The notes below the pieces were generated by a model. It made no database searches. It was given only the letters and a program-made list of their open reading frames with translations, and was not told where the DNA came from. From positions 4,855-68,854 of the forward strand of contig JBBQWG010000017.1 in the NCBI GenBank assembly GCA_038210825.1: a stretch of 64,000 bases of DNA, given 5' to 3'. Numbering within the stretch: position 1 is the stretch's first letter; every line of letters begins with the position of its first letter. Of this stretch, positions 3,787 through 63,856 are shown in pieces. Origin of the DNA: Verrucomicrobiales bacterium. Its GTDB lineage: Bacteria > Verrucomicrobiota > Verrucomicrobiia > Verrucomicrobiales > V1-33. The position numbers and the translations under genes were made by a program.

Positions 3787-4488
3787 TCAAGCCCGGCGGC
3801 GGCGGGAGAGCAGGCCCATCCCCAACAAAGCCAACAGACTGGCGCTTCCCGGTTCGGGAATCAACTGGCCTCCCCCGAGGATGCCGGCATTTTCCAATGG
3901 ACCAGCGGCCGTCTGCAGGCGGGCTTCCCCGATCTGCATGCTGTTCACCGTGCCGTCAGCGGACCCCTTTACCGTCGGAAATACGAGGAGATACGTCGAA
4001 TAGGCGGTTGGATTGGCAAAAGTAGTATTGAACGTGGAGCGGGTGGTTCCCCGGGTTGCCGCATCGTCCGGCAGCAGCACGGTTCCTGACGAAATGGCCG
4101 TAAAAGCAGTGTCCACGTTGAAACTGGTTCCAGCCACCGTGCTGGCGGTCGCCGTGTTGCTGCCGTAAAGGATATAGGTGGCGGGATCACGCAGGGGAGC
4201 GTCATTGCCAGAGACAAAATTGATGCCAGTCACCACTGCGGCGGTGCTGCCCGTGGTGGTGTAGATGTAGCCCGTGTTGTTTTTGGCGAAATTCAGATAC
4301 TTGTTGGTCAGATTCCCATCAATGGCATTCCCGGGATTCTCCCCCCCGCTGGCAGGCCACACATTGGGCAGATTGGGCAAGGCAGGATTGGCGACAGCCT
4401 GGGAACCGATCACGAAGGTCAGGGCGGCACTGGCCGGGACAGCACCGGCAACGCTCAGGATGGCAAAGATCAACAGAGGGGATTTCAT
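3787..4488 (-). CDS. PEP-CTERM surface protein with a discoidin/CBM32-like beta-sandwich
   Basis: Signal peptide; ENPGNAIDG..TNKYLNF..NDAPLRDP..LYGSN..MQIGE pattern; C-terminal IPEPGSASLLALLGMGLLSRRRRA. Confidence 0.85.
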   Translation of the reverse strand: MKSPLLIFAILSVAGAVPASAALTFVIGSQAVANPALPNLPNVWPASGGENPGNAIDGNLTNKYLNFAKNNTGYIYTTTGSTAAVVTGINFVSGNDAPLRDPATYILYGSNTATASTVAGTSFNVDTAFTAISSGTVLLPDDAATRGTTRSTFNTTFANPTAYSTYLLVFPTVKGSADGTVNSMQIGEARLQTAAGPLENAGILGGGQLIPEPGSASLLALLGMGLLSRRRRA

Positions 4489-4787
4489 TTTTGTGGTTTG
4501 CTTGATGACTTCCGTGACGGCCTTCCGGGATACGAAATCGTCACAATGTGCTGCCTATTCATTCATGGCAATCATTCTGTGGTCAACTGATTTAGAGGAA
4601 AATTAATACTAATTTGCCGGGAATTCACGCCATTTGGCAGGCCGGTGATCTCCGCCGGGCACACGGCGGCACCTCATTCGGCCGGCTTCGGAAGGGGGGC
4701 CGGATAGGACGATAGGACAGCCGCATCGCGCCCTTTCCAACCCGGCAGGACCACCCCACCTTATGCCTTCAAAACTGCGCTTTGACC

Positions 4788-5579
4788 ATGCCAGCCGACT
4801 ATCACCTGCATACCCCGCTTTGCCATCATGCCACCGGTTGGCCGGTGGAGTATGCCCGCAGGGCGGTGGAACTGGGTTTGCCCGAAATCGGATTTTCCGA
4901 CCACAGCCCCATGCCGGATTATTTCGATGATTGGCGCATGGCGGACAGCGACCTGCCCCGCTATCTGGAGGCGGTCGAAGCTGCGCGCTTGCAGTTCCCG
5001 GCCCTGCCGATCCGGCTCGGCCTGGAAGTCGACTGGCTGCAGGGCGGCGAAGCATGGATCGATGCCCTCGCCCAACGGGCCCAGTGGGACTACCTGATCG
5101 GCAGCGTCCACTACCTTGGGGATTGGAACTTCGACAACCCCGCAGAAACCGCCCGCTTCAGCCACTTTGGAGTCGAAGCTGCCTGGGACCGCTATTGGCT
5201 CCTCTTTGGTCAGGCCGCCCGCTCCCGGCGGTTTGAAATCATGGGCCACCCGGATCTGGTAAAAAAATTCAAACACCGTCCCGACGGGGATCTGCGCCGC
5301 TACTATGAACCGGCAGTGCAGGCCTGTCTCGAGGCCGGTGTCGCTATCGAAATCAACACTGCCGGCCTCTTCAAACCCGTGGCCGAGATGTATCCAGCCC
5401 CCGAATTCCTCACTCTCGCCGCCACTGCCGGCATCCCCCTCACCATCAATTCCGATGCCCACTCCCCGGAGGAAGTCGGCCGCGCTTTTCCGGAAGCCGT
5501 CCAACTGGCCAAAGCCTGCGGATTCAAACAACTGGCCCGGTTCACCGGCCGCCAACGCCGCCTGGTCCCGCTGGACTGA
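4788..5579 (+). CDS. Histidinol-phosphatase, HisJ/PHP family
   Basis: DYHLHTPLCHHA, SDH, GLEVD, SVH, GHPDL and NSDAH motifs. Confidence 0.85.
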   Translation: MPADYHLHTPLCHHATGWPVEYARRAVELGLPEIGFSDHSPMPDYFDDWRMADSDLPRYLEAVEAARLQFPALPIRLGLEVDWLQGGEAWIDALAQRAQWDYLIGSVHYLGDWNFDNPAETARFSHFGVEAAWDRYWLLFGQAARSRRFEIMGHPDLVKKFKHRPDGDLRRYYEPAVQACLEAGVAIEINTAGLFKPVAEMYPAPEFLTLAATAGIPLTINSDAHSPEEVGRAFPEAVQLAKACGFKQLARFTGRQRRLVPLD

Positions 5580-5726
5580 GGCGGACGTCCTGAAAAGCGT
5601 GTTGCGCGACGGAACGCACGATCACCCGGCTTGCCGGAATGAGGCGCGGACGTCCCAGAAAAGTGTTTCCTCCCGCCGCCGCGTCGCTTAAGACAAAGTC
5701 CTCCACCACTCTGTTTCCTGTCCCTT

Positions 5727-6818
5727 ATGAAACCTTCACGCAAATTCTCCCGCCGGCATTTTCTCGCTACGACGACCGCCGCGTTCGCTGCACCACAGGT
5801 GCTCACGGCCCAGAAGTCGGATAAACAACTTGTTATCGGTGAGGGGGCACATCGCTACGAAGTGCTGCACAACTGGGCGCAGTTGCCGGACAAATACCAG
5901 TGGCAGACCACGCACAACGTCGCCGTGGACGCCGAAGGACTGCTTTACGTCATCCACGAGGGCCGCGAAAATCTGAAGGACCATCCGTCCATTTTCGTCT
6001 TTGACGACAAAGGGAAATTCGTGCGTGCCTTCGGCAATCAGTTTCAGGGCGGCGGTCACGGCTTGGAGGTCCGCACCGAGGGCACCGCGCAATTTCTTTA
6101 TGTCACCGGCTATCAGCAATTGAAAAATTTTGCCAAGCTTACGCTGCAAGGCGAGCCCGTGTGGGAAAAGCGGGCCCCGATGGAGTCGATGCTGTATCCG
6201 GAGAACGAAGACACGAAACCGTCCAAGCGCTGGGGCCGCGATGCCTTCATGCCGACGAATTTTGCCTTCCTGCCCGATGGCGGATTCTTCGTCGCCGACG
6301 GTTATGGCTCGTTCCGCATCCATCGTTACGACAAGGAGGGAAAGTGGGTCTCCATGTTCGGCGGGCCCGGCAAGGGAGACGGCCAGTTCGACACGCCGCA
6401 TGGGGTGTGGATCGACTCCCGTTCAGGGCGCACCCCATCAGTCGTGGTCGCGGACCGCGCGAACAAACGGCTGCAATGGTTCACGCTGGAAGGCAATCAC
6501 CTCAAGACACTCGACGGATTCATCCTGCCGGCAAACATCGATTCGCACCAGGACGTCCTGCTCGTCCCTGACCTGAGCGCGCGGATCACACTGCTGGACA
6601 AGGACGATAAAGTGATCACTCATCTGGGTGAAGATCCTGCCTGGCGCGAACAAGTATTAAAGGACGGCATGAAACTCCGCCGCGACGAAAAGAGCGAAGG
6701 TTGGGTCGCGGGAAAATTCCTCCATCCGCACGATGCGTGTTTTGATGCCGCCGGAAATATCTTTGTGGCCGAGTGGGTCCATACGGGACGTATCACAAAA
6801 CTGCGGAAAGTGGGATGA
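5727..6818 (+). CDS. Tat-exported NHL-repeat beta-propeller (peptidyl-alpha-hydroxyglycine amidating lyase-like)
   Basis: SRRHFL twin-arginine signal; NHL repeats (FFVADGYG, FDTPHGVWID, VVVADRAN, HPHDACFD). Confidence 0.8.
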   Translation: MKPSRKFSRRHFLATTTAAFAAPQVLTAQKSDKQLVIGEGAHRYEVLHNWAQLPDKYQWQTTHNVAVDAEGLLYVIHEGRENLKDHPSIFVFDDKGKFVRAFGNQFQGGGHGLEVRTEGTAQFLYVTGYQQLKNFAKLTLQGEPVWEKRAPMESMLYPENEDTKPSKRWGRDAFMPTNFAFLPDGGFFVADGYGSFRIHRYDKEGKWVSMFGGPGKGDGQFDTPHGVWIDSRSGRTPSVVVADRANKRLQWFTLEGNHLKTLDGFILPANIDSHQDVLLVPDLSARITLLDKDDKVITHLGEDPAWREQVLKDGMKLRRDEKSEGWVAGKFLHPHDACFDAAGNIFVAEWVHTGRITKLRKVG

Positions 6819-6970
6819 ACCCGCCACGCCTGCCGGTGCCTCATGGAGCGCCATGTCCGAAAATGACACCCTGGCTCCAAGGGATGTCCAGACCGCTGGA
6901 CTTCCAGAATAACAAAGCGGAGTTAATCGGACTGTTCTGTTCTGATTGACATCAAAACATGCCCCAACCA

Positions 6971-7000
6971 TTGACATCAGGTTTTTTGTTTCCCTACCTT
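6971..7000 (+). promoter_or_regulatory. Candidate sigma70 promoter for the CxxCH dehydrogenase gene
   Basis: TTGACA-N18-TACCTT, ending 28 nt before the ATG at 7029. The -35 lies inside the second of two ATTGACATCA repeats. Confidence 0.45.
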
Positions 7001-7028
7001 CCGTTTCAGAATTCCAGCCGTGCCCTCC

Positions 7029-9965
7029 ATGATCCGCCGTCTCATTCCTCTGCTCGCTGCGATGCCTGCGGCGGCCCGGCCGCCGGTGGCGGAGGATTTT
7101 GTGCTGGATCCCGTCTGCAGGATGGAGCTCTGGGCGGGGGAGCCTGACATCGTGGATCCCGTGGGACTCACGTTCGATGCGGCGGGACGGGCTTATGTGC
7201 TGGAAATGCGTGATTACCCGCTTGGCACGGATGGCAAAGGCGCGCCCGGGGGCACCATCCGGTGCCTTGAGGACACCAACGGCGATGGCAAGCCAGACAG
7301 GAGTGTGCTCTTTGCGGAAGGCCTGCGCTTTCCCACCTCCATCTGCGCGGTGAAGGACGGCGTCGTCGTCAGCGCGCCGCCGGAGATCGTTTTTCTCGCC
7401 GACCGCGACGGCGACGGCCGGGCGGAGGTGCGCGAAGTGTGGTTCACCGGCTTTTTGGCGGGCGTGACCGACAGCAATTTCAACGGGCTGCGCTGGCACA
7501 TGGACGGGCGCATCCACGGCGTAAATGGCGGCAACGGCGGACTCGTCTTCAATCCGGAAAAGCCTCACAAATTCACGCGTCTCGCGGAACTTGATTTCGC
7601 GTTTGATCCGCAGTCGAAGGAACTCGCCACCACCTATCCAACGGGCGGCGGGTTTGGCCTGGTGTTCGATGACGTGGGCCGGAGTTTCGTGACGCACAAC
7701 ATCAACCACATGCAGATGCGCATCCTGCCACAGTCGGTGCTGGATGAAGTTCCCGGCGGTTCGCCGCTCCGCGGCACGCAGAACATCTCCGTCCATGGGG
7801 AGAACTGCCGCATCTATCCCGTCCACGACGCGCAGACACGGCCCAACCACCCTGAGCAGGCAGGCTACTTTTCCAGCGCCGGGGGCATGGGTTATCTGAA
7901 TCACAGCGGTTGGCCGGCGGAGTTCGCGCACTCGCTGTTCGTCTGTGACGCGGCCTCCGGCGTCGTGCATCTCGAGGTGCTTTCGCCTGACGGTCCTATC
8001 GTAAAATCGCAGCGCCCCCCCGGCGGGGAAACGCGCGAATTCCTCGCCGGCCGGGATCCTGCGTTCCGCCCCGCCGGCGTGGAGCTGGGTCCGGATGGCG
8101 CCCTTTATATTCTCGACATGCAGCGCGAAGTCATCGAGCACCCTGACTACATCCCGCCGCGCATGAAGGCCAAGGTGGACCTCCGCGCCGGGAGCGGCCG
8201 TGGCCGAATTTGGCGGATAGTTCCCCAAGCCGGCTTGCCGGAACCTGACAAACTGCCGGCACGGGCGGGCGTGGAGGAACGGGTGAGAATGCTCGGATCG
8301 GCGAACCAGTGGACGCGGCTCGCGGCACAGCGGCTGCTGGTGGAGCAGCCTGACGGAAAGGCGGTGCCGCTGCTGCAGGCCGCGCTCCGTCAGGAAAAGC
8401 ACGGGCAGGATCTGCCGCCTGACTCGCCTCCTTCCCATTCCGCGCACCAGTCGCTCCATGCCCTGTGGACGCTCGCCGTCCTCGACAAACTCACTGCGGC
8501 CGACCTCACCGCCGCCGCCAGCCATCACTCTCCGGCGGTCCGCGCCGCCGCCTTCACGGTTGCCAGCCCTTCCTTGCCCGACGCCCCCGCCCGTCAAGCC
8601 ATGGCCCGTCTGGCGGACGACCCGGACCTGCGCGTCCGCTGGCAGTTTCTCCTCCACGCACGCGCCCTTGCCCTGGCAACAGATCAAAGCCTTTCCCATG
8701 CCTCGCTCGAAGCGCTCCGCCGGGATGGAGCCAATGTCTGGGTGCGCACGGCCGCTCTCCGGCTCCTCGGCGACCATGTCAGCGATGCCATGGCACTCAT
8801 CCTGTCCGGAAAACGGGATGAGCCGGATTTCCTGCGCGACTTCGCCCGGGCGCAAAGCAACCCGGCAGTGCTTTCCCGTCTTCTTGTGGCAGGTTTTGAC
8901 CTTGGCAGACCACAGCTTTGGGCGGTGGTTGAAGGCGCTCTCCCTGCCATGAAAGCCCACAAACTGAGTCCTGAAATTCCTGACAACTGGCTCCGGAGTG
9001 ACGATCCTACCGTCCTCAACGCCGCGCTCACGCTGGAATCCGCGGGTGGCATCGTCTCCGGAACAATCGACCGCGATGCCCTGGCCGCCCGCATCCTGCG
9101 GTCCCTGGCATCCACCCCGTCCACGGAGTCCAAAGCCCCATGGATCCGTCTTCTCCGCCACTTTCCCCTCACAAAAACCGCCGACACCCTCTTTCCCTCC
9201 CTGCACGCCGGGGAGGCTCCGGAAATTCAACAGGCTGCGCTGGAAAGCCTGCGCGCGCGTCCCGAGCTTGAGGTGGCGGACACCCTCGTAAAAGACTGGG
9301 CGCTCCTCTCACCCTCTCTCCGTCCCTCCCTCGCCGCCCTGATGGTGGAGCGGCGTGAATACCGTCCTGCCCTTGCCGACGCCCTCGTTTCCGGTGCCAT
9401 CAAGCCCGGCGAGATCAGCCTCGACCTCGAGCAACGGCGTCAACTGCTGCGCCACAGCGGGGCGGAGATCCGCGATAAAGTCTCCCAATTCCTGACTGAC
9501 GACGAATACAGCAACCGCGCCGCCGTCGTGGATGCCTGGCTCGCGAAATTGCCTGCCACGGGCGATGCCAAACGCGGGCGCACGGTCTTCACCAACCAGT
9601 GCGCCCAGTGCCACCGGGCCGGCGGTTTGGGCCATGAAGTCGGACCGGACCTCGCGGCCCAAAGCCATCGCAGCGTGGAGGATTTGTTGACCCACATCCT
9701 CGATCCCGACGCCGCCATCAATCCCAACTACGCGGCATTTATCGCGGAGACCAACGACGGCCGGAAGCAGGCCGGAATTCTTGTCAGCAGCAGCGGCGCA
9801 AATATCGTGCTCCGTCAGGCGATGGGCCTCCAGGTCGAAATTCCCCGCGCCGAAGTGAAGTCGCTGCAATCCACCGGCCACAGCCTCATGCCCGCCGGTC
9901 AGGAGGCCCTGTTTACTCCGCAGGAGATGCGCGACCTTATCGCTTTTCTTCAGGAGAAGGAATGA
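7029..9965 (+). CDS. PVC-type membrane-bound dehydrogenase domain / heme-binding CxxCH protein
   Basis: N-terminal propeller (EPDIVDPVGLTFD, GRIWRI), HEAT-like middle region, C-terminal CAQCH, GPDL, HILDP and SLMP motifs. Confidence 0.9.
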   Translation: MIRRLIPLLAAMPAAARPPVAEDFVLDPVCRMELWAGEPDIVDPVGLTFDAAGRAYVLEMRDYPLGTDGKGAPGGTIRCLEDTNGDGKPDRSVLFAEGLRFPTSICAVKDGVVVSAPPEIVFLADRDGDGRAEVREVWFTGFLAGVTDSNFNGLRWHMDGRIHGVNGGNGGLVFNPEKPHKFTRLAELDFAFDPQSKELATTYPTGGGFGLVFDDVGRSFVTHNINHMQMRILPQSVLDEVPGGSPLRGTQNISVHGENCRIYPVHDAQTRPNHPEQAGYFSSAGGMGYLNHSGWPAEFAHSLFVCDAASGVVHLEVLSPDGPIVKSQRPPGGETREFLAGRDPAFRPAGVELGPDGALYILDMQREVIEHPDYIPPRMKAKVDLRAGSGRGRIWRIVPQAGLPEPDKLPARAGVEERVRMLGSANQWTRLAAQRLLVEQPDGKAVPLLQAALRQEKHGQDLPPDSPPSHSAHQSLHALWTLAVLDKLTAADLTAAASHHSPAVRAAAFTVASPSLPDAPARQAMARLADDPDLRVRWQFLLHARALALATDQSLSHASLEALRRDGANVWVRTAALRLLGDHVSDAMALILSGKRDEPDFLRDFARAQSNPAVLSRLLVAGFDLGRPQLWAVVEGALPAMKAHKLSPEIPDNWLRSDDPTVLNAALTLESAGGIVSGTIDRDALAARILRSLASTPSTESKAPWIRLLRHFPLTKTADTLFPSLHAGEAPEIQQAALESLRARPELEVADTLVKDWALLSPSLRPSLAALMVERREYRPALADALVSGAIKPGEISLDLEQRRQLLRHSGAEIRDKVSQFLTDDEYSNRAAVVDAWLAKLPATGDAKRGRTVFTNQCAQCHRAGGLGHEVGPDLAAQSHRSVEDLLTHILDPDAAINPNYAAFIAETNDGRKQAGILVSSSGANIVLRQAMGLQVEIPRAEVKSLQSTGHSLMPAGQEALFTPQEMRDLIAFLQEKE

Positions 9966-55200: not shown

Positions 55201-56292
55201 TCAGTTCAGATTGATGTTTTGCTGGGCGATCAGCTTTTCTGAAGCCTCACTGACCCCGCCCTCTCCGTTGCCCGTAAAGGTGGCGTTGGCCACGACGTTG
55301 GCGATGCAACTGATGTCGTTGATGCGCAGTCCGGCCCCGCCGCTGCCGGTGACGGTCAGGTCACTGAAAATATTGCCGGTGCAGGGGGTATTGTGCTGGT
55401 CATCGGCTTGTGCAATGAAGATACCCTGAGCACCATTCCCCGTGACTGAGAGATGGTTGAAGTTATTAAAATTGCTGTCCCGCATGAAGATGCCTTGGCT
55501 GCCATTGTTCTCCAGCCGGGCGTGTGAGATGATGTTGCGGTCAAAGCGCAGGTCGATGCTGATGCCGGCGGCATCGTTACTGTGGAGGTAGAGCCGGGTG
55601 AAAAAGCTTTCTTCCGTTTCGTAGGCCGCGAAGCCGTCGAAGTGGTTGTGATACGAGGTGAAATCGCTGACATGGATTCGGCGGCTGTGTTTTTCCAGCA
55701 CCAAACCTCCGCTGCGGGCACCCCGCGCGGTGACCCGTTCCACCCGGATATCCTCCGCACTGCGGATGGTCAGGGCATTGTTCCGGATAAACGACAGCCC
55801 ACCATTGTCGCACGGCCCGCCGTTGCATTCATTCAACTGGTTGTAGCGGTTTCCATCCAGAATCAGCTTGCGCAGGGAGACACCCGTAACCTTGCGGGTG
55901 GGCGGCGTTTCCATCGGGCCAATCACCACCAGTGGACAATCGGCATGATCTGCCAGCATCAGGATCGTGGATTCCTGGTCACCTGACAATTCCACATCGT
56001 TGCGGTCCAGGACCAAGGGCTCGCGTAGGACGTAGGTGCCGGAATCGAGGAGAATGCGCCCGCCATCGGGAGGAAGGGCCGCGATGGCCTTGGCAATATC
56101 CGCTCCTGGGCCGAGCGGAACGCGGATTTCAGCGCGTTTGAATTCCGGCGAACGGGTGATTTCCAGTCCGTTTTGGAGAACCGGACGGGCGGCGTTGGTT
56201 CCCATAACGTTAAAAATGCCAAAGGCCGCCAAGGGGAAGCCGAGAACAAGAGCAGAAAGGGTCGTGACGCGGCGGATGGTTTTGTTGTTCAT
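55201..56292 (-). CDS. Secreted right-handed parallel beta-helix protein
   Basis: Signal/TM segment, ILDGNR motif and repeated N-x-x-x-G-I/F coils. Confidence 0.8.
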   Translation of the reverse strand: MNNKTIRRVTTLSALVLGFPLAAFGIFNVMGTNAARPVLQNGLEITRSPEFKRAEIRVPLGPGADIAKAIAALPPDGGRILLDSGTYVLREPLVLDRNDVELSGDQESTILMLADHADCPLVVIGPMETPPTRKVTGVSLRKLILDGNRYNQLNECNGGPCDNGGLSFIRNNALTIRSAEDIRVERVTARGARSGGLVLEKHSRRIHVSDFTSYHNHFDGFAAYETEESFFTRLYLHSNDAAGISIDLRFDRNIISHARLENNGSQGIFMRDSNFNNFNHLSVTGNGAQGIFIAQADDQHNTPCTGNIFSDLTVTGSGGAGLRINDISCIANVVANATFTGNGEGGVSEASEKLIAQQNINLN

Positions 56293-56420
56293 GGAACGCC
56301 TCCTTGGTTCAGGGGTTTGAGGAAGAGAGTCTGACAAAAGTAACGTTGTACTAAGTCAATGAATTATCAGGAATTTAACCGTTTTGAGATTAGGAGCAAG
56401 CATTAAAGTTTAATTGGATG

Positions 56421-56777
56421 TCAGCTTGCACCGATTGCCAAGGCAACGGGGATGGCATGACAAACCTGTCGCCAGCCTGGAAAATTCCACTTATTGGGAA
56501 AATCGCGGCATTGCTGCGGTTTGACCGGATGGATGAGGCAGTGGTTGCCATTGAGGAAGATACACGAATGATCCTCTTGTTCGGTGAGGGACAAGCCTTG
56601 CCGGTTGGTGCGGAGACGGGTGAAGCGGGCGATCACTTCCGATTCCTCCAAACCCAAGAAACCGGCGATGGCGGCGACTTCCTCAGGGTCCACTTTGACG
56701 TCCCCAGGCCAGCGGCAGCACGCCGTACAGCGCTGACATTTCCAATAGCTATGGGGGGGAGGGACTTCGTAAACCAT
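56421..56777 (-). CDS. YkgJ-family cysteine-cluster (putative Fe-S) protein
   Basis: CQRCTACC..CIFL..CLIH..KP..C pattern. Confidence 0.9.
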   Translation of the reverse strand: MVYEVPPPHSYWKCQRCTACCRWPGDVKVDPEEVAAIAGFLGLEESEVIARFTRLRTNRQGLSLTEQEDHSCIFLNGNHCLIHPVKPQQCRDFPNKWNFPGWRQVCHAIPVALAIGAS

Positions 56778-56934
56778 TTATCAAACCCGGAATTATTTTT
56801 GTGAAGAAACCGTTTCCTGGTCAGTTTGTCCACCATTTAAATCCCGCCATGCCTTCCCTGCTCATCTCAAGGCGAAGCCGGGGCATCTGCGCCTGAAGTG
56901 ACTAGCAGAACCCCGGCCCGGATGGCGGGCCGGA

Positions 56935-58236
56935 TTACTGGGGTGCCGGCGTCAGGGTGAAATCATACTCCTTGTGCCGGGTTGCCCCGGGAGCCTTGAT
57001 GGCGGCCACTCCGCCCTTGCCATCGCGCTCAAGAATAAAGCCACACCATTTGGCCTTCAGGAGCGGGCCTTTGCGGCTGAAGATCAGGTAGGATGGCGGA
57101 GGGGCAGCGGCAATGATTTGGGCGGTCGTTTTGGCATCAAACCCGAGGAATCCGAGGGTTTCCGGATCGACGCTGGAGCGCTCGACTTTCCAGCCTTCCC
57201 CATCGCCGGCCGATTGGATGGGGACGGTGCGGCGCAGTTCCAGTCCGGAAGCACTGCGCTCGATAAACTCGCACTGCTGGAACCCGGGGTGGATCACCAG
57301 ACGAAACCGGTTTTTGGCATCCGTGCTGGTCCATGTTCCTTCGGGATCGACCCAATGTACCGCCGGAACAAAATTGGCTTGGCGGATCGGTTCCCAATCC
57401 TGACGCATCGTGCCATCGGGCGGGAGAGCAGGGCCACATTCCCCGCCTTGGTCGATAATGAAAGTTTGGACGCGTTGGACAAATCCCTTCCAGAAAGCCT
57501 CCTCGTGGGCGGCGATGGTGTCCCATTGGTCAGGAGGGGTGCCAGCCGGGAGGCGCCACGCTCCGCGCGTGATAATTTGATAGGGCTGGTGGCCGGCGGG
57601 CCGGGCGGCCGCACGCGGGGCGGGTTTGCCTTTCCGGCCTGTGAGGGACGTCTCCGGATCCGGGTCCGCCGGGCTGCCAAGGGCAGTCCAACCGAACCAG
57701 CGGTTGCCACTGACGGGCCAATTCCGGCGGGCGGTGTCGGCGGCATGGACAGTGGAGAGGACCCAGGAAGCCGGCGTTTGCTCGGTAAGAGCAAGGCAGG
57801 CCGTGCCAGGCGGGGTGGCTTTGGCTAGGGTGACGTGGATCACCGCCCCGGCCCCAGCCGAGGAGGACTGCCATTTCCACTGGTCTTCAAAGCCTTCTAC
57901 CCGGCTGCTGGCCAGGGCGGGATCTAGAAAATCGGTAAATTGCGTGCGGATCCAGTGCAGGACTTCGTCCGGTTTCAGTTCACGTCCGGCGGCCTTGGGG
58001 GGCTTGATCACCGTGAGACCATAGGCGTCGAGGCCCAGCGGACCATTGCCAGCTTCCAGCTTTTGGAAGTGCCAAAGTCCGGCCGGAGCAGCAGCCGGCC
58101 GGGTCATCAGCGCGGTCTGGTGCGGCAGGGCCGGACGGAAGTTGATCATCGGCAGCCAATCCGCCACGCTCTGCGCCATGAGAATGCTCTGGCCAGCGCA
58201 CCACAAGGCAAAAGAAACCAGGGAAATCCTCATCAT
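56935..58236 (-). CDS. Secreted hypothetical two-domain protein
   Basis: Signal peptide; long ORF with GC-rich coding bias; LD.Y..IR..F.D..W...GAVIH..PVSGNR.FG..TRG pattern. Confidence 0.7.
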   Translation of the reverse strand: MMRISLVSFALWCAGQSILMAQSVADWLPMINFRPALPHQTALMTRPAAAPAGLWHFQKLEAGNGPLGLDAYGLTVIKPPKAAGRELKPDEVLHWIRTQFTDFLDPALASSRVEGFEDQWKWQSSSAGAGAVIHVTLAKATPPGTACLALTEQTPASWVLSTVHAADTARRNWPVSGNRWFGWTALGSPADPDPETSLTGRKGKPAPRAAARPAGHQPYQIITRGAWRLPAGTPPDQWDTIAAHEEAFWKGFVQRVQTFIIDQGGECGPALPPDGTMRQDWEPIRQANFVPAVHWVDPEGTWTSTDAKNRFRLVIHPGFQQCEFIERSASGLELRRTVPIQSAGDGEGWKVERSSVDPETLGFLGFDAKTTAQIIAAAPPPSYLIFSRKGPLLKAKWCGFILERDGKGGVAAIKAPGATRHKEYDFTLTPAPQ

Positions 58237-58432
58237 GGCAAACGATATCTAAACCCGGGCGGCCATGGGCTTTCAAGAGAGGATTGATCATGGCCTTTGC
58301 CGGGACTGGTTAATTTCCGGAGCAGCATTAATTTCCAATGTGATCACAAAGATCATAAGCAATTTTGCGCGGGCTTCGTCTTGCATCCTTTCCACTAACG
58401 GATAAGGACAGGCAGCATTTCTCTGCCCGCTT

Positions 58433-59551
58433 TTGGACTCCTCACCGCTTTCCCCTTCCGGATTCCCGCCCCGTGCGCGCAGCCATGTCTGGATGCCCGT
58501 GACCTTGGCGCTGCTGCTGCTGCCTTTGGGCGTGTGGAGGTTGAGTGCCCGCCAAAGCCATGGCTTGGCTGATTCGGGTCTGGCGAAGTGCCGGGCCATT
58601 TTGAAGCCATGGCAGTATTCGGAATCCGTAAAAGCCGGCCATCCGGCACCGGCCGCATCGTTGCATTGGCTGCATGCGTCGGTGACCGGCGTGGTGCCCA
58701 GCCTTGCCGTGCGGAACAGCATTCATCAGGCCATCGACCAACTGGAAGGGATCCAGTGCGATCCTGAAGGAATTGCCCAACTGCGGGTGATGCCCCACCT
58801 CGAAGCCAAACGCGATGGCAACCGGATCCTGCTGAGCGGCGAGGTTTCCCTTCGTGAAACCGTGGCCGAGGCGGTCCGGCTGATCGTCCATGCAGAGCCC
58901 GCAGTGGTGGTGGATGCCTCTGCAGTGACGGTGCATCCGGCGGTGCTGCCCGTGAGTCTGCCCCAACGGGTCCAGGATGCCGGGGACCATGCTTTCCTTG
59001 CCAAAACCTGGCCGGCGGTTAATTTTGCCTGGCCGGTGGTTTCGATTGATTTTGAAGGGCGCACTCCCCGCCTTCTGGGCCAATTTCCGCTGCAAAAGGT
59101 GCGGGACCAAGTGGTGGAGGCACTGCGGGCCGCCCGGCCGGATTTGGTGCTGCATGAAGAGGCCGCCGTCCTCGACAGCAGCCTGCCGCCGGTGGATTTC
59201 GCTGGCCCGGACGGAGCGGAATGGGTTCCGCCGGGCTGGCTAAAAGACACCTGGGACAAGTGGATGGTGTATCCCGCTTTGCGGTTGAGGCTGGAACGCC
59301 ACGAATACCGCCTTGATGGACTGGTTCCCAGCACGCCGATCCTGAACACCGTGCTCACCGTGCTGCATCGTCTGCGCCCCGATTTGAAGTTTGCCAAAGG
59401 CGATCTGGAAATCCGCCAGGGTTCGTTGGACAGACCGGTTCTGCTGCCTGCTTCCCTCAAGGGCTGGACCCCGTCAACATGGCTGCAGCCCCTCGTTGAG
59501 CAGGTCTCCACCCTGCCCGTTCCTCCCACCTCACCCACGTCCTCATTCTAA
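58433..59551 (+). CDS. Membrane-anchored protein with four BON-like repeats (start uncertain)
   Basis: TM segment, then VTGVVPS, LSGEVSL, LLGQFPL and LDGLVPS beta-G-x-V-P-helix units. Confidence 0.65.
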   Translation: MDSSPLSPSGFPPRARSHVWMPVTLALLLLPLGVWRLSARQSHGLADSGLAKCRAILKPWQYSESVKAGHPAPAASLHWLHASVTGVVPSLAVRNSIHQAIDQLEGIQCDPEGIAQLRVMPHLEAKRDGNRILLSGEVSLRETVAEAVRLIVHAEPAVVVDASAVTVHPAVLPVSLPQRVQDAGDHAFLAKTWPAVNFAWPVVSIDFEGRTPRLLGQFPLQKVRDQVVEALRAARPDLVLHEEAAVLDSSLPPVDFAGPDGAEWVPPGWLKDTWDKWMVYPALRLRLERHEYRLDGLVPSTPILNTVLTVLHRLRPDLKFAKGDLEIRQGSLDRPVLLPASLKGWTPSTWLQPLVEQVSTLPVPPTSPTSSF

Positions 59552-59552
59552 C

Positions 59553-60191
59553 ATGGAACCTTTTTGGTATTCTATCACCCGTGCCGCCAGCACCCTGATT
59601 CCTCTGCTGCTCCTGGCCTATGGAGCCGGACTCTGGACCGGGTGGATCAAATGGCACACCTGGAAGCGGGAGTATCAGGCTGTGGAAACCGACTACCACA
59701 AACTCCATGACATTCATGACGTGGCCCGGGCCACCATCCCGGAACTGGAACAACGCCGCGAGGCCCTCACCGGAGAAATCCAGGGGCTGGAGGATTTGCT
59801 GGGGCAATACAAGGATGCCAATGAGAAATTTGAAGCCGAGTCCCTCCGGCTGAACCAAAACCTGCGCGCCACCAAGCGGAACTACGAAGCCCTCGAAGAC
59901 ATCTGGCGGGTCAAACTGGCGACGGCCGAACTGCGCATTCAGGAACTGGAATCCCTTCTGCCCCGGGAGTCCACCGCCGCAGGCATGGCGGCCAAATCTC
60001 ATGCCGATCTCATCCCGCCGGGGACTCCAGAGGGACAAGCCAGTGAGGAGGGGCACCGCTTGATCCCCTTCCCGGCCAGCGTGGTGGAGACCGCAGCAGC
60101 GGCTGGCGAAACGGCACCTCCCGCCACGGCTCCAGCGGCGGCGGCCTCCGGCAAAACGTCGCGGAGAATCAAAGGACGCCGCGCGGTGTGA
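59553..60191 (+). CDS. Single-pass membrane protein with a long coiled coil
   Basis: TM segment LIPLLLLAYGAGLWTGW, then a heptad-rich E/K/L region; starts 1 nt after the upstream stop. Confidence 0.75.
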   Translation: MEPFWYSITRAASTLIPLLLLAYGAGLWTGWIKWHTWKREYQAVETDYHKLHDIHDVARATIPELEQRREALTGEIQGLEDLLGQYKDANEKFEAESLRLNQNLRATKRNYEALEDIWRVKLATAELRIQELESLLPRESTAAGMAAKSHADLIPPGTPEGQASEEGHRLIPFPASVVETAAAAGETAPPATAPAAAASGKTSRRIKGRRAV

Positions 60192-60301: not shown

Positions 60302-61048
60302 TCAATTACCCTTCCGGTTCCACGCGCCGTGGGCTTCCGCTTTGCTGCGGGCCTCTTCTTCCATCAACAGGTCACGAAACTGGGGGGCGCTCAGGCCGTC
60401 CGGCTGGGCGCGGTCGCATTCCACAATCCGCGCCAGGCCATAACGGACGAGCCATTGCGCCAGATTGATGAGGCCCTGTTCGGGATCCTTCAAATAAATG
60501 AAGGCATAAAAGGCATCATCAGCCGGATTTTTTTCCCATCGCGTCACCACGCGGAATTCATTGGCACGGAGCAGGCCAAGGCTGAACTCGCGGGCCTCCA
60601 GACCGAGGGCGCGGAGCGGTTCCTCACTGTCGAACCCAAAATATCCCGCCATGTCCCGCGCCGCTTCCGGCTGGCCGCCGTCGGTTTCCACCGTGTCCAC
60701 AAAATACAGACAAAACCGGTGCTGGCCCTCGGGGGTCTTGAGCAGGAAAGTGTCTCCCTCGTTAGCCGGATCATCAAGGAGGCTGATTTCGGTAATGACT
60801 TGATACTCGGCCATGGGCTGCCCGTCCGCATTGAGGGGCAAGGAGGGGGCCGGCACCGCCGCTCCGGTCAGGGGCGGCACCGTCACGGAGGGCCCTGCGG
60901 CTTCCACTCCTGCGGTTGGCTGTGCCGCCGCGGCCGCGCTGCGCCGCGCACTGGCGGTCCGGCTGAGCAACCAGCCAATCAACAGCAAGGCCAGCAGCAG
61001 AATGCCGGTGGCAACAAGGGTGAACCGCGTGCTTTTATCCTGAATCAT
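60302..61048 (-). CDS. Membrane-anchored thermonuclease (SNase)-fold protein
   Basis: EGDT, LYFVDTVE, LAQWLVRYGLA and EEARSKAEAHGAW patterns; N-terminal TM segment. Confidence 0.75.
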   Translation of the reverse strand: MIQDKSTRFTLVATGILLLALLLIGWLLSRTASARRSAAAAAQPTAGVEAAGPSVTVPPLTGAAVPAPSLPLNADGQPMAEYQVITEISLLDDPANEGDTFLLKTPEGQHRFCLYFVDTVETDGGQPEAARDMAGYFGFDSEEPLRALGLEAREFSLGLLRANEFRVVTRWEKNPADDAFYAFIYLKDPEQGLINLAQWLVRYGLARIVECDRAQPDGLSAPQFRDLLMEEEARSKAEAHGAWNRKGN

Positions 61049-61155
61049 GGGCCGGAAAAGGGGGTGGGCAAAGTCCCACAGTGCGGACTCCCGGATCCGG
61101 TGCAACGCCCTTTTATCCCTCGACGGCCTGCTGCTTCCGGTCTTTTTTGAAAACC

Positions 61156-61755
61156 ATGACCGACTGGCAACATCAATATGAATCCGGCCAGACCCCATGG
61201 GACCGGGGCGCACCTGCTCCGGCTCTGGTGGACTATCTGAAATCCAATCCAGTGGCGGGCCGGGTGCTGGTGCCGGGCTGCGGCACCGGGCAGGACGTCA
61301 AAGTGCTGGCCCTGGCCGGAGCCACGGAAGTGGCCGGTCTGGACGTGGCCCCGCTGGCGGTGGAGCGGGCCCGCCGTTTCCTCGCCGGTATCCCACGGGC
61401 CATCGTGGAACGGGGGGACCTGTTTGTGGATTGCCACCAGCCCCCCCTCGCCGGAAGCTTTGATCTGGTGTGGGAGCACACTTGTTTTTGCGCCATCCCC
61501 CCGGGGCGGCGCGCCGACTATGTGGAGGCGGTGGCCGCCGCCCTGCGTCCCGGCGGACACCTGTTAGGAGTCTTTTACCTGAACCCATGGGATGAGGATG
61601 AGGACCAGACCCAGGGGCCCCCTTTCGGCACCGGACTGGACGAACTGCGGACCCTGATGGAAACGCGCTTTGATTTGGCAAAAGGCTGGCGTCCGGAGGT
61701 CGCCTATCAAGGCCGGGAGGGCCGGGAATGGTGCGGACTGTTTGTCAGGCGATGA
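61156..61755 (+). CDS. Thiopurine S-methyltransferase-like SAM methyltransferase
   Basis: WQHQY..TPWD, VLVPGCGTGQD, WEHTCFCAI and GPPF motifs. Confidence 0.9.
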   Translation: MTDWQHQYESGQTPWDRGAPAPALVDYLKSNPVAGRVLVPGCGTGQDVKVLALAGATEVAGLDVAPLAVERARRFLAGIPRAIVERGDLFVDCHQPPLAGSFDLVWEHTCFCAIPPGRRADYVEAVAAALRPGGHLLGVFYLNPWDEDEDQTQGPPFGTGLDELRTLMETRFDLAKGWRPEVAYQGREGREWCGLFVRR

Positions 61756-61768
61756 TTGAGGTCAAACC

Positions 61769-63856
61769 TCAACCGAAGGGTGGTGGATCCACCTGCAACA
61801 ACGCCACAAAAGCCTCCGCCACCGCGGCATCATTGAGCACCAGGGTGCCCCTCACCATGCGCGGGCCGGATGCGGTTTCCGCCATCACCGGGGGATCCGT
61901 GGCTTGCAGGTGTTGCGCATAGGCCTTGAGGGATGAATGCCCCTGCGCCAGCAAAGCCCGGCGGTGCAGGATGCGGAACCGGAGGGTTTTGGCAGGGTCG
62001 GTGAGCCGCCGCAGATCCAGCGTGACTCGGCCCATGGTGGTGCGCGGATTGATTTCCACCAGAGGCCGCAGCCGGATCCGGCCAACGGGATCGCGGTATA
62101 AAAAGGCGTCCACGCCAAGATTGCCGTAGAGCCGGTCCATGCCGGGAAGACTGCGCAACAAGGAGGGCAGCGCTTCCTCATACAAAGATTCTGCGCCGGC
62201 CTCCTGCAGGGCGCGGGCGGCCCCGGCGGGAAGAAGGCGGGTGAAGGCCGGTGCCGACTCACAGGCCAAAAACCGTCCCCCGGCATCATTGAGCAAATGG
62301 ACTTGCCCCTTCAGCCGGGGCAGGCTGCCGGGTGTCAGTTCATACTGGCAGGAGAAGTCGGCCACCCGTTCCAGCCAGGCTTCCACCACGACGGCACCCT
62401 GGTGGTGCAGGACCGGACGCAGCCATGTCCGGTCGCGTTCCGTCAGGCCGGAGGTCTGCACCTGAATCAAGCCCCGGCCGGCAATGCCCCATGGCGCTTT
62501 GAGGCAGGCGCGGCTCCATCCTCGCGATGCGAGCCGTTGCAGTTCGTTGGTCACTCCGGTTTCAGTGCTGGCCGGCAGTCCCCAGGTTTCTTCCGGAAAA
62601 TGATGGGCAGCGGCCAAGCGTCGGGCCAGCGCGGCGGCGTTAGTCTTCGCATACAGGCTGCGCTGCGCCTCGTCCCATGGCAGATGCGCGACCACCGCTT
62701 CTCCGGTGTTGCCCACGAGATCCCCCATGACTGCGGCGGAGTCGGCAGACCACGCCCATGGGCGCAGTCGTCCCAGTTTCCGTTGCCTCAAGGGCGAGTC
62801 CAGCTTGATCCGGCCTGCGCCGTTGAGGAGTTCCCACTGGGGAAACACAATGCCCATGTCCCGCAGGGAACGCAAATGATCTGCGGAAGGGAGCCGCCGA
62901 ACGAGGACAACATCCTCTGCATGCAGACTGAAGCACGGCAATAGATCCAAGTCACGCGCAAGGGCCGCAGTCGTCGGGTCCGCGTCTGCCGTCGCGGGGT
63001 CACGGGTCAGGGCGCAGGCTTCCGCCGCCGGGTTGAACCATCCGACCCATGGGGTGCGTCCTTTGCTGTGCGAAAACAGATCAAGGGCCGCAATAAATTC
63101 CTCACTGAATCCGGCCTTGAGCCGGCCCTCGCGGTTAAATGGCACATTGCCTTTGGCCCGGGCCGGTGACAGTGGAAAAGCCATGGTGTCCTGCCACGCC
63201 TCCCAGTCCGGCCGGGCAGGATCCTTCCAGCGCCGGAACCAGGTCAGACCATACCCGACATGCGCGATTTCATCGTGATAGATCCGGTCGAGCAGACGGC
63301 CGGTGCCGCAGTCGCCGATGCGGTGGAACAACTGGCTGTAATGCCGTGCATAGTCAAGGTTTGCCTGTTCAAATGTCAGGCTCAGATGACTGACATAATC
63401 CAGCGGGGTGGCCATGGCCGAGATGCTTTTCCAGAAGAAGCCGTTCACTGGAAGGTCTCCCAGTTTCAAGCCGCCGGCAGCCATGCGCTCCATGTAGAGC
63501 CGGGTGTGTTCCTGTTCCTCGCAAAGCGTGTGCAGCAGTCCGCGCCGGAAGGCAGGAGGAGCCCCCGGAAATTTCAGCAGGGCGAGGGCCATCAGCTCCA
63601 CGGCCAGCAGTTCATGATTGGCAAAGGCATGCAGCAGGACAGCGCGGGCCTCGGACTGGTGCAATTCATCCGCCCGGGGCAACCTGGCCCGCTCGCCCCG
63701 AGCCGAAAATTGCAAGCCCGGCGGACGGCCCGGGAGGTCCGGCAGGTCCACCGCCCCGGCCGGAACAAAGTCCGTCAGCCGGCCCTCGGGCGTCTGCAGT
63801 TTCTCCGCCATGGTATTAGCCAACAACACCCGCTGGGCAAATTCCCGGATTTCCAT
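61769..63856 (-). CDS. DUF455 ferritin-like domain fused to an ATP-grasp domain
   Basis: HAFANHELLAVE, EEQEH, FEQANLD and DEIAH in the N-terminal third; LKAPWGIAGRG, VVEAW, GVDAF and EINPR in the C-terminal part. Confidence 0.85.
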   Translation of the reverse strand: MEIREFAQRVLLANTMAEKLQTPEGRLTDFVPAGAVDLPDLPGRPPGLQFSARGERARLPRADELHQSEARAVLLHAFANHELLAVELMALALLKFPGAPPAFRRGLLHTLCEEQEHTRLYMERMAAGGLKLGDLPVNGFFWKSISAMATPLDYVSHLSLTFEQANLDYARHYSQLFHRIGDCGTGRLLDRIYHDEIAHVGYGLTWFRRWKDPARPDWEAWQDTMAFPLSPARAKGNVPFNREGRLKAGFSEEFIAALDLFSHSKGRTPWVGWFNPAAEACALTRDPATADADPTTAALARDLDLLPCFSLHAEDVVLVRRLPSADHLRSLRDMGIVFPQWELLNGAGRIKLDSPLRQRKLGRLRPWAWSADSAAVMGDLVGNTGEAVVAHLPWDEAQRSLYAKTNAAALARRLAAAHHFPEETWGLPASTETGVTNELQRLASRGWSRACLKAPWGIAGRGLIQVQTSGLTERDRTWLRPVLHHQGAVVVEAWLERVADFSCQYELTPGSLPRLKGQVHLLNDAGGRFLACESAPAFTRLLPAGAARALQEAGAESLYEEALPSLLRSLPGMDRLYGNLGVDAFLYRDPVGRIRLRPLVEINPRTTMGRVTLDLRRLTDPAKTLRFRILHRRALLAQGHSSLKAYAQHLQATDPPVMAETASGPRMVRGTLVLNDAAVAEAFVALLQVDPPPFG

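Follow-up and report, generated by a model that had tools for sequence, protein, structure and literature searches.

A DUF455 ferritin-like domain joined to an ATP-grasp fold in one chain: a widespread, unstudied architecture of Verrucomicrobiota and Planctomycetota

Introduction

What does a bacterium do with a single protein chain that carries both a ferritin-like domain and an ATP-grasp domain? The question is raised by one gene in a 64,000-nucleotide stretch of DNA (here called the window) from a Verrucomicrobiales bacterium (contig JBBQWG010000017.1 of assembly GCA_038210825.1, positions 4,855 to 68,854), in which an ATG-to-TGA reading frame on the minus strand runs unbroken through 695 codons (61769-63856, the TGA being 61769-61771). 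A reading of this gene by a model that was given only the letters and a list of open reading frames (the sequence-only reading) had proposed a fusion of a DUF455 ferritin-like bundle with an ATP-grasp ligase, able to oxidise and ligate a single substrate. The analysis described below finds two known superfamilies in an unstudied combination, one that is both widespread and nearly obligate.

The N-terminal half clearly belongs to DUF455 (PF04305), a family that NCBI and JGI list under the names "DUF455 family protein" and "ferritin-like domain-containing protein" and that is also present in plants and fungi. Full-text literature searches found no functional study of DUF455 (PF04305/COG2833/IPR007402) or of an architecture in which ATP-grasp and ferritin-like domains are combined, in agreement with the sequence-only reading, which knew of no characterisation of it, and the literature that mentions DUF455 in context holds nothing on its function.

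Results

A two-metal site is predicted in the N-terminal half

Pfam family PF04305 matches the N-terminal part of the protein with an expectation (E) value of 9.8e-48 (163.3 bits against a cut-off of 34.3) over model positions 13-246 of 247, and it is matched by all 45 relatives in our comparison set (identity down to 42%; residues called invariant below are conserved in these 45 homologues). When this half was modelled alone it gave a predicted local distance difference test score (pLDDT) of 92.5 and a predicted template modelling score (pTM) of 0.91, and the model is a four-helix bundle (helices 68-95, 101-127, 151-179 and 183-210) with extra helices at both ends. Are residues that could hold metals in place? 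The candidate ligands H76, H81, E82, E87, E114, H117, E163, E196 and H199 are all invariant, as are the motifs N80-H81-E82, E114-x-x-H117 and D195-E196-x-x-H199, and they follow the layout of a di-metal site, with E82 or E87, E114xxH117, E163 and E196xxH199 placed across the four helices. Phmmer/hmmsearch alignment with the bacterioferritin 1nf4 puts E114, H117, E163, E196 and H199 upon its E56, H59, E99, E132 and H135, which we take to be five of the six ligands of its ferroxidase centre; the sixth ligand of the DUF455 site would be E82 or E87 in helix 1. The DUF455 half thereby contains a complete and strongly conserved predicted two-metal site, and the bundle with a full ligand set that the sequence-only reading had placed at about residues 1-265 is upheld, every ligand it named being invariant. 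Ferritin-like sites that bear such a ligand set usually activate O2. N80, Q115, T161, F162, N166, D168, D195 and R245 are further invariant residues, and the invariance of the first seven suggests a substrate pocket and not an iron store.

The common four-helix bundle and the E/ExxH/E/ExxH ligands are shared with ferritin-like di-metal proteins of solved structure (1nf4; 7qbp, an R2-like ligand-binding oxidase or R2lox; 2ani, the R2 subunit of a class Ic ribonucleotide reductase (RNR); and 4rc7 and 4kvq, aldehyde-deformylating oxygenases). All of these likenesses are marginal: a sequence profile search of the PDB with the N-terminal domain gave bacterioferritin at E 0.018, R2lox at 0.11 and class Ic RNR-R2 at 0.17, Foldseek gave generic matches to Dps, bacterioferritin and aldehyde-deformylating oxygenase at E 0.056 or above, and a phmmer search of PDB sequences with the whole fusion protein gave bacterioferritin as its sole match (E 0.19). 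Compared with bacterioferritin, the DUF455 domain has ~65 extra N-terminal and ~50 extra C-terminal residues, and its invariant H76, N80, H81, N166, D168 and D195 lie outside the columns that align with the bacterioferritin ligands. MiaE (the tRNA ms2io6A hydroxylase) and the N-oxygenases AurF and CmlI belong to the same broad ferritin-like di-iron superfamily. The earlier comparison of this domain with MiaE and AurF as relatives is not supported, since neither they nor CmlI were present in the Pfam results, in the PDB profile search (E<=10) or among the 50 Foldseek matches listed; they illustrate possible chemistry only.

The C-terminal half has an ATP-grasp fold

The ~430 C-terminal residues of the window protein match no Pfam family even at E<=10, the biotin-carboxylase, PurK and carbamoyl-phosphate synthetase (CPSase) models included, and an NCBIfam search with the whole 695-amino acid (aa) protein gave no match. 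A single one of the 45 relatives touches ATP-grasp_3 (E 0.28), and 21 of the 45 members match the PreAtp-grasp family PF18604 weakly and below its gathering score (best E 5e-5), the window protein itself being unmatched. What, then, is this half? Comparison of its model with the PDB by Foldseek returned only ATP-grasp enzymes (more than 50 structures at a probability of 1.00), among them the Streptomyces peptide ligase 8ynd (E 1.2e-11), the pheganomycin peptide ligase PGM1 (3wvq/3wvr, 3e-11), LdmS (7r8q, 1.6e-9) and BesA (8yi6, 1.1e-8). Ranks 1 to 21, together with BesA at rank 23, are amide ligases of the same four-subdomain layout, and biotin carboxylase, PurK and PurT (E 1e-8 to 1e-7) and PylC are next in the list. 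The modelled C-terminal half is a member of the ATP-grasp superfamily that is recognisable by fold only; it is invisible to current family models, and standard annotation overlooks it. Both domains of the sequence-only reading are upheld, DUF455 by its Pfam profile and ATP-grasp by the fold of the model, without a match in Pfam or NCBIfam.

The sequence motifs of an ATP-grasp enzyme are nevertheless at the places where that reading had put them (model pLDDT 93). K453 stands at the end of the strand 449-453 and is followed by the loop G457-IAGRG462; K453 and G460 are invariant and A459 is at least 90% conserved. In the hinge, L495 is invariant and E492 and W494 are at least 90% conserved, and in the segment with the predicted Mg2+ ligands and catalytic arginine D583, E601, N603, P604, R605, T607, G609 and R610 are invariant. 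The pre-ATP-grasp subdomain that precedes them contains the invariant residues F274, N275, E279, D302, D315, P366, W367 and W369, and the C-terminal extension has strands at 625-631, 657-661, 664-673 and 683-689 (pLDDT ~93-97), an invariant G670, and L674, N675 and D676 that are at least 90% conserved.

The only ATP-grasp enzyme that the family profile reaches at the sequence level is LdmS (E 0.89), the L-aspartate-L-methionine ligase of S. aureus (SAOUHSC_02373, 7r8p/7r8q), which has the ATP-grasp fold in common with the fusion. LdmS has a glycine-rich P-loop, its Asp288 and Asp301 are Mg ligands, its Asn303 is at the cation site and its Arg305 holds the carboxylate/gamma-phosphate position (PMC9486568), and D583...E601-x-N603-x-R605 of the fusion is the same pattern as its D288...D301-x-N303-x-R305. 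It differs in being a single-function dipeptide ligase without DUF455, and the two are 12% identical. The structures closest to the C-terminal ~420 residues are PGM1 and the Streptomyces ligase (8ynd/8ynq), with a template modelling (TM) score of ~0.6 on the target and a pre-ATP-grasp subdomain followed by the core in each; they are 15-18% identical to the fusion and were not matched by phmmer/hmmsearch against PDB sequences. PGM1 has no fused metal domain, the fusion family has no Pfam match to PGM1_C, and neither a precursor-peptide gene of the PGM1 type nor a biosynthetic cluster was found near the fusion gene. Neither its sequence, nor its C-terminal domain, nor its genomic setting makes the fusion a member of the PGM1 family. 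BesA, the gamma-glutamyl ligase of the beta-ethynylserine pathway, likewise has the ATP-grasp fold in common with it.

The two halves are nearly always one chain

Is the fusion a real protein? The predicted N-terminus MEIREFAQRVL agrees with the consensus MExRxFAERVL of the 45 homologues, so the start codon is correct, and the GC content at the gene (~62-65%) is the same as that of its flanks. The 695-aa sequence has no signal peptide or membrane segment, from which we take the protein to be soluble and cytoplasmic. An AlphaFold2 model of the full chain, built on the 45 homologues, has a mean pLDDT of 93.1, a pTM of 0.86 and no segment below 50; this pTM, set beside that of the N-terminal domain alone, points to a defined inter-domain arrangement in the model. 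A stand-alone ATP-grasp protein of Flammeovirga (P0127) aligns to fusion residues 262-617, which places the domain boundary at about residue 270, and the stand-alone DUF455 protein of locus L005 (below) aligns up to residue 258. Table 1 lists the features.

Table 1. Features of the fusion gene, in window coordinates
Feature	Residues	Coordinates	Strand	Basis
Whole gene, DUF455/ATP-grasp fusion	695 aa	61769..63856	-	Open reading frame list, translation, full-length homologues, AlphaFold2
DUF455 ferritin-like domain	14-255	63092..63817	-	Pfam PF04305; N-domain model
Four-helix-bundle core with candidate di-metal ligands	68-210	63227..63655	-	DSSP helices on the model, invariant residues
Domain junction (AALDLFSHSKGRTPWVGW)	256-273	63038..63091	-	pLDDT 82-94; ends of the stand-alone relatives' alignments
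Pre-ATP-grasp N-terminal subdomain of the ligase	274-400	62657..63037	-	Invariant columns; weak PF18604 in relatives
ATP-binding and catalytic core	401-620	61997..62656	-	Foldseek against the PDB
Predicted ATP-phosphate lysine and glycine-rich loop	K453-APWGIAGRG462	62471..62500	-	Conservation, sequence verified
Predicted adenine-binding hinge	V489-VVEAWL495	62372..62392	-	Conservation, sequence verified
Predicted Mg2+ ligands and catalytic arginine	G581-V-D583...E601-I-N603-P-R605-T-T-M-G-R610	62027..62116	-	Invariance; LdmS pattern
C-terminal beta-rich extension	621-695	61772..61996	-	Model strands, conservation

A word-index search found 1,470 relatives, and the best 120 of these are nearly all 650-740 aa long with at least 97% query coverage (the exceptions have 787 and 913 aa); those that have a name in their source are called "DUF455 family protein", "ferritin-like domain-containing protein" or "hypothetical protein". 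A scan with one genome per species counted at least 581 genomes with a relative; 80 loci were retained from it, and every one has a near-full-length match. The hosts of these 80 are mostly Verrucomicrobiota (Verrucomicrobiales, Limisphaerales/Pedosphaera, Opitutaceae, the cultured Pelagicoccus, Coraliomargarita and Terrimicrobiaceae) with some Planctomycetota. Several fusion-bearing metagenome-assembled genome records (L006, L023, L039, L043, L054, L057 and L071) are labelled Akkermansia muciniphila, Klebsiella, Enterobacteriaceae or Bifidobacterium, and these labels are very probably wrong, through binning or labelling.

How often are the halves found apart? A HMMER search with the ATP-grasp half gave 2,490 representative clusters (50% identity) at E<=1e-3, 795 at 1e-10 and 109 at 1e-30. 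The top 150 matches are mostly proteins of ~650-745 aa in which the match begins at about residue 265, and about a dozen are complete proteins of ~440-470 aa. A stand-alone ATP-grasp profile was made from 16 such short proteins and used to fetch 80 metagenome loci, 5 of which could not be judged; 70 of the 75 evaluable loci have both halves in one open reading frame, 4 carry an ATP-grasp gene that truly stands alone, DUF455 being absent within ~4 kb, and in one, L175, the DUF455 part is interrupted by an in-frame stop. L161, which could pass for a split form, is a single open reading frame. The two halves are nearly always one chain, and a nearly obligate single chain is strong evidence that they work together.

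The only genuine-looking two-gene form is that of L005, from a divergent lineage, in which a 269-aa DUF455 gene (7185-7994) is followed after 6 nt by a 350-aa ATP-grasp gene (8001-9053); identity to the fusion is 45% over residues 4-258 and 35% over the ligase core. The pair lies at the end of a same-strand series (4448-9053) that encodes an unknown 303-aa protein, an SCO1/SenC protein, a Na/Ca-exchanger family protein, DUF455 and ATP-grasp; the exchanger gene overlaps the DUF455 gene by 7 nt, and an RHS-type toxin gene comes after the pair.

We regard misassembly, faulty annotation and gene decay as practically excluded explanations of the fusion. Short "DUF455-only" proteins do exist in the databases and could be taken as signs of these, or as natural split forms, but all three cases examined on long contigs look like frameshift splits: in each the parts overlap by 4 nt, in low-coverage assemblies of error-prone long reads, so the split cases are themselves the artefacts. 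The window reading frame is intact, the frame is continuous in hundreds of independent assemblies, and residues conserved across the junction, together with the confident model, fit a functional protein. The in-frame junction assumed by the sequence-only reading is therefore borne out by more than 100 full-length homologues of 650-740 aa and by the spread over species genomes given above. In the long-read metagenome assemblies L094, L095 and L096 the fusion gene and others (panD in L096) are broken by frameshifts, and such assemblies yield spurious "DUF455-only" and "hypothetical" entries in the public protein databases.

Genes near the fusion

Does the fusion gene have a constant partner? All open reading frames of at least 90 aa in 86 loci with up to 10 kb of flank were clustered, and no neighbour gene is present in more than 16 of the 86. 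A census of the directly flanking genes, taken on each side at 160 loci, yielded 284 proteins that fall into 196 clusters; the largest clusters are those of a Uup-type ABC-F ATPase (13 loci), of a DeaD/DbpA RNA helicase (10) and of an unknown 130-aa protein (7); rhodanese, TauE and ClpX-like AAA proteins have 5 loci each, and DnaN and a PepP-type (M24) aminopeptidase are among the smaller clusters. A conserved gene cluster is ruled out by these figures. A hidden precursor peptide or small operon partner is ruled out also, as no conserved open reading frame of 25-120 aa was found within 1.5 kb in the 86 loci (the clusters obtained are shadow frames of lineage-specific neighbours); the sequence-only reading had seen neither peptide nor cluster, and the wider comparison agrees with it.

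The helicase and ABC-F genes were followed further on a FastTree tree of 150 fusion proteins. DeaD is within 5 kb in 18 of 95 evaluable loci, with 10 state changes on the tree against ~17-18 when labels were shuffled, and ABC-F is within 5 kb in 13 of the 95, with 4 state changes. Except for the early-branching L075 and the ABC-F case L084, the positives fall in a single sub-clade, to which the window gene does not belong. Within it the early branches have DeaD downstream of the fusion, a derived group has it upstream, and many members have no DeaD. A Limisphaerales-like set in this sub-clade (L024, L033, L035, L116-L121, L134 and related loci) has the order DeaD/DbpA helicase, fusion, convergent Uup-type ABC-F. 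We read this adjacency as synteny that was inherited and is being lost, the gene order having changed once, and it is a lead and not proof of a functional link.

Other candidate partners were set aside. VIT1, ZIP, the Na/Ca exchanger, SCO1, H+-PPase and peroxiredoxin were each found in one genome or in near-identical genomes, and 68 apparent radical-S-adenosylmethionine (radical-SAM) "hits" are an antisense shadow of the 5' region of the ATP-grasp part in an over-extended frame. Neighbours of the miaA, CvfB and pseudouridine-synthase kinds have little or no recurrence in 177 loci. Beside stand-alone ATP-grasp genes we noted three settings, those of L176 and L124 both lacking DUF455 within 4 kb: in L176 (823-3284) the gene is followed after a 3-nt gap by miaA; in L124 (314-4328) it overlaps a radical-SAM gene by 4 nt and is downstream of an S1/CvfB RNA-binding gene; and in Flammeovirga it is 1.2 kb from a Uup-type ABC-F gene and near infC-rpmI-rplT. 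The miaA, CvfB and L124 radical-SAM pairings are each single loci among the 177.

The gene that converges on the fusion in the window, at 61081-61755 (+) and separated from it by 13 nt, encodes a 224-aa SAM methyltransferase (Pfam TPMT, E 5.8e-28), which the sequence-only reading had offered as a possible third step. This proposal fails, because among 84 other loci L007 alone (a relative at 70% identity) has the methyltransferase gene beside the fusion, and in L008 it is missing while the gene beyond it is retained. The product scores 52 bits against the NCBIfam cut-off of 223 for thiopurine/Se/Te methyltransferases and is probably a TPMT-like enzyme with another substrate. The gene beyond, at 60302-61213 (-), overlaps the start of the methyltransferase frame and encodes a 303-aa protein with a hydrophobic N-terminal segment and no Pfam match, which the close relatives L007 (73% identity) and L008 (58%) also have next to the fusion region. 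A string of poorly annotated genes fills window positions 55201-60191: a NosD-like beta-helix protein (55201-56337), a CxxCxxCC zinc/iron-chelating domain protein (56421-56777), and proteins without a Pfam family of 433 aa (56935-58236), 372 aa (58433-59551) and 266 aa (coiled-coil-like, 59391-60191).

Stand-alone DUF455 proteins of ~270-285 aa and ~28-33% identity are encoded in Ralstonia, Sinorhizobium, Sphingomonas, Azospirillum and Thioclava. Their annotated contexts were considered as a clue to function and gave mixed neighbours, none of them ATP-grasp: peroxiredoxin in Sinorhizobium and Sphingomonas, cysQ in Azospirillum and an alpha/beta hydrolase in Ralstonia. The DUF455 gene directly follows the peroxiredoxin gene in both alphaproteobacteria (Sinorhizobium L087, 4282-5594, 18-nt gap; Sphingomonas L088, 4369-5645, 4-nt overlap), and this may be a conserved pair in two alphaproteobacterial orders that hints at peroxide or redox chemistry, although it is found in only 2 of the 5 annotated contexts. 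In Sinorhizobium a DEAD-box helicase gene is 1.6 kb from the DUF455 gene.

Discussion

The above results describe a protein with two conserved predicted active sites, but what reaction might join them? We would put at about one in two the chance that it is a two-step cytosolic enzyme which forms an amide on an amino-acid-like substrate and oxidises the same molecule. The ATP-grasp half would bind Mg-ATP between K453 with its glycine loop and D583, E601 and N603; a substrate carboxylate would be phosphorylated to an acyl-phosphate, stabilised by R605 and R610, and attack on it by an amine would give the amide, ADP and phosphate. The DUF455 bundle would hold a carboxylate/histidine-bridged two-metal centre (Fe-Fe or Mn-Fe) and would use O2 and an external reductant for hydroxylation, desaturation or N-oxygenation of the same molecule. 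Oxidation could come before ligation or after it ("tag, then oxidise"), both orders being equally possible, and rigid packing of the domains would let an intermediate pass between the sites. Since the structures nearest to the ligase half make amino-acid or peptide amides, an acyl-phosphate-forming amide ligase for an amino-acid-like substrate is the most economical interpretation of the model, and since the gene travels alone, a common metabolite that resembles an amino acid or a small peptide is the likeliest substrate. The two domains share one chain and the model has a high pTM, which suggests that one product is handed between the sites. The oxidise-and-ligate proposal for one substrate made by the sequence-only reading fits the complete invariant ligand set, the complete ATP-grasp set and the full-chain model; from these we infer catalysis, metal, O2 use, step order and substrate class.

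The addition of an amino-acid handle followed by oxidation has precedents in gamma-glutamylation in the beta-ethynylserine, putrescine (Puu) and isopropylamine (Ipu) routes. The beta-ethynylserine pathway couples ATP-grasp ligation to iron-dependent oxidations of the same amino-acid skeleton, which is the logic proposed here for the fusion. The Bes enzymes are, however, separate and clustered, whereas the fusion gene stands alone, and DUF455 is not among the Bes oxidases, which comprise a heme-oxygenase-like di-iron enzyme and enzymes of the Fe/2-oxoglutarate type.

Several observations weigh against the two-step enzyme. Searches for a solved structure of DUF455 or a close fold relative found none (best Foldseek E 0.056), so that the ligand pattern is the sole argument for an oxygenase role, and ferritin-like sites can also be ferroxidases, peroxidases or purely structural. 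The fold matches of the modelled C-terminal half cannot separate ligases from carboxylases. No ATP-grasp gene is beside the stand-alone proteobacterial DUF455 genes in annotated replicons, and DUF455 is missing from the 4 kb around some of the stand-alone ATP-grasp relatives; such stand-alone genes mean that each half can work without the other.

Could the substrate instead be part of the translation apparatus? The fusion might modify a ribosomal protein, a translation factor or a tRNA base, the ligase attaching an amino acid either to a carboxylate or amine of a protein or to the side chain of a nucleoside and DUF455 hydroxylating the same site, and its commonest neighbours, the Uup-type ABC-F and DeaD/DbpA genes, with DeaD both upstream and downstream, speak for this. 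So do the miaA, radical-SAM and S1/CvfB genes beside the stand-alone ATP-grasp genes of L176 and L124, the ABC-F and infC-rpmI-rplT genes near that of Flammeovirga, and the helicase gene near the Sinorhizobium DUF455 gene. PGM1, at the top of the fold matches, reportedly takes a ribosomal peptide as its amine substrate. We nevertheless think modification of a translation macromolecule unlikely: the helicase and ABC-F adjacency is mainly confined to a sub-clade without the window gene and is patchy there, the miaA, CvfB and radical-SAM cases do not recur, and the neighbours are otherwise as diverse as the census shows. Protein-modifying ATP-grasp enzymes of the RimK and tubulin-tyrosine-ligase types are not among the 50 fold matches listed. 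A particular form of the idea, a housekeeping enzyme whose two-part modification (an aminoacyl or amide group added and then oxidised) falls on a ribosomal protein, a translation factor or a tRNA position of the position-37 type, would explain the recurring DeaD and Uup neighbours, the miaA operon of a stand-alone relative and the lack of a biosynthetic cluster; it seems to us rather improbable.

The DUF455 half need not be an oxygenase at all. It could be a metal or redox sensor, or a peroxide-handling or ferroxidase-type module, that controls or protects a ligase which makes the product alone. The marginal similarities to bacterioferritin, Dps, R2lox and RNR-R2, which are the only ones it has, the peroxiredoxin genes before DUF455 in two alphaproteobacteria and the ATP-grasp relatives without DUF455 are in keeping with this. 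We think it unlikely, since a substrate pocket accounts better for the invariance of N80, Q115, T161, F162, N166, D168, D195 and R245, aldehyde-deformylating oxygenase ranks with the best fold matches and the peroxiredoxin link is limited to the contexts counted above. The ATP-grasp half, for its part, could be a carboxylase or kinase like biotin carboxylase or PurK, its carboxyphosphate or phosphorylated intermediate then being used by the di-metal domain. Biotin carboxylase and PurK have the E-x-N-x-R motif and the glycine-rich loop in common with each other and with the fusion, and in the Foldseek list they come after the ligases. However, the 21 top-ranked fold matches, like BesA, are amide ligases, the weak PreAtp-grasp (PGM1-type) matches in 21 of the 45 members point the same way, and the Pfam models for biotin carboxylase, PurK and CPSase find nothing, and we consider a carboxylase or kinase very unlikely. 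The two-step amide-forming and oxidising enzyme is the reading that we prefer.

What does the finding mean for these families and their hosts? The ligase clade comprises ~2,500 clusters at 50% identity, mostly fused to DUF455. DUF455 is an old Pfam family, and the fusion could give an entry to its function: as a "Rosetta-stone" case it narrows the search, since the target of DUF455 should be, or become, a partner in an ATP-dependent amide bond. A single, soluble gene product of moderate size, encoded also in cultured Verrucomicrobiota (Pelagicoccus), is a practical entry point. If the modification of a translation macromolecule were true, it would be the first functional assignment for the DUF455 of proteobacteria and eukaryotes. 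If the substrate is a common metabolite or a part of the ribosome or of tRNA, a widespread piece of the physiology of the Planctomycetota-Verrucomicrobiota-Chlamydiota (PVC) group would be revealed, and with it, if true, a new reaction class for ferritin-like enzymes.

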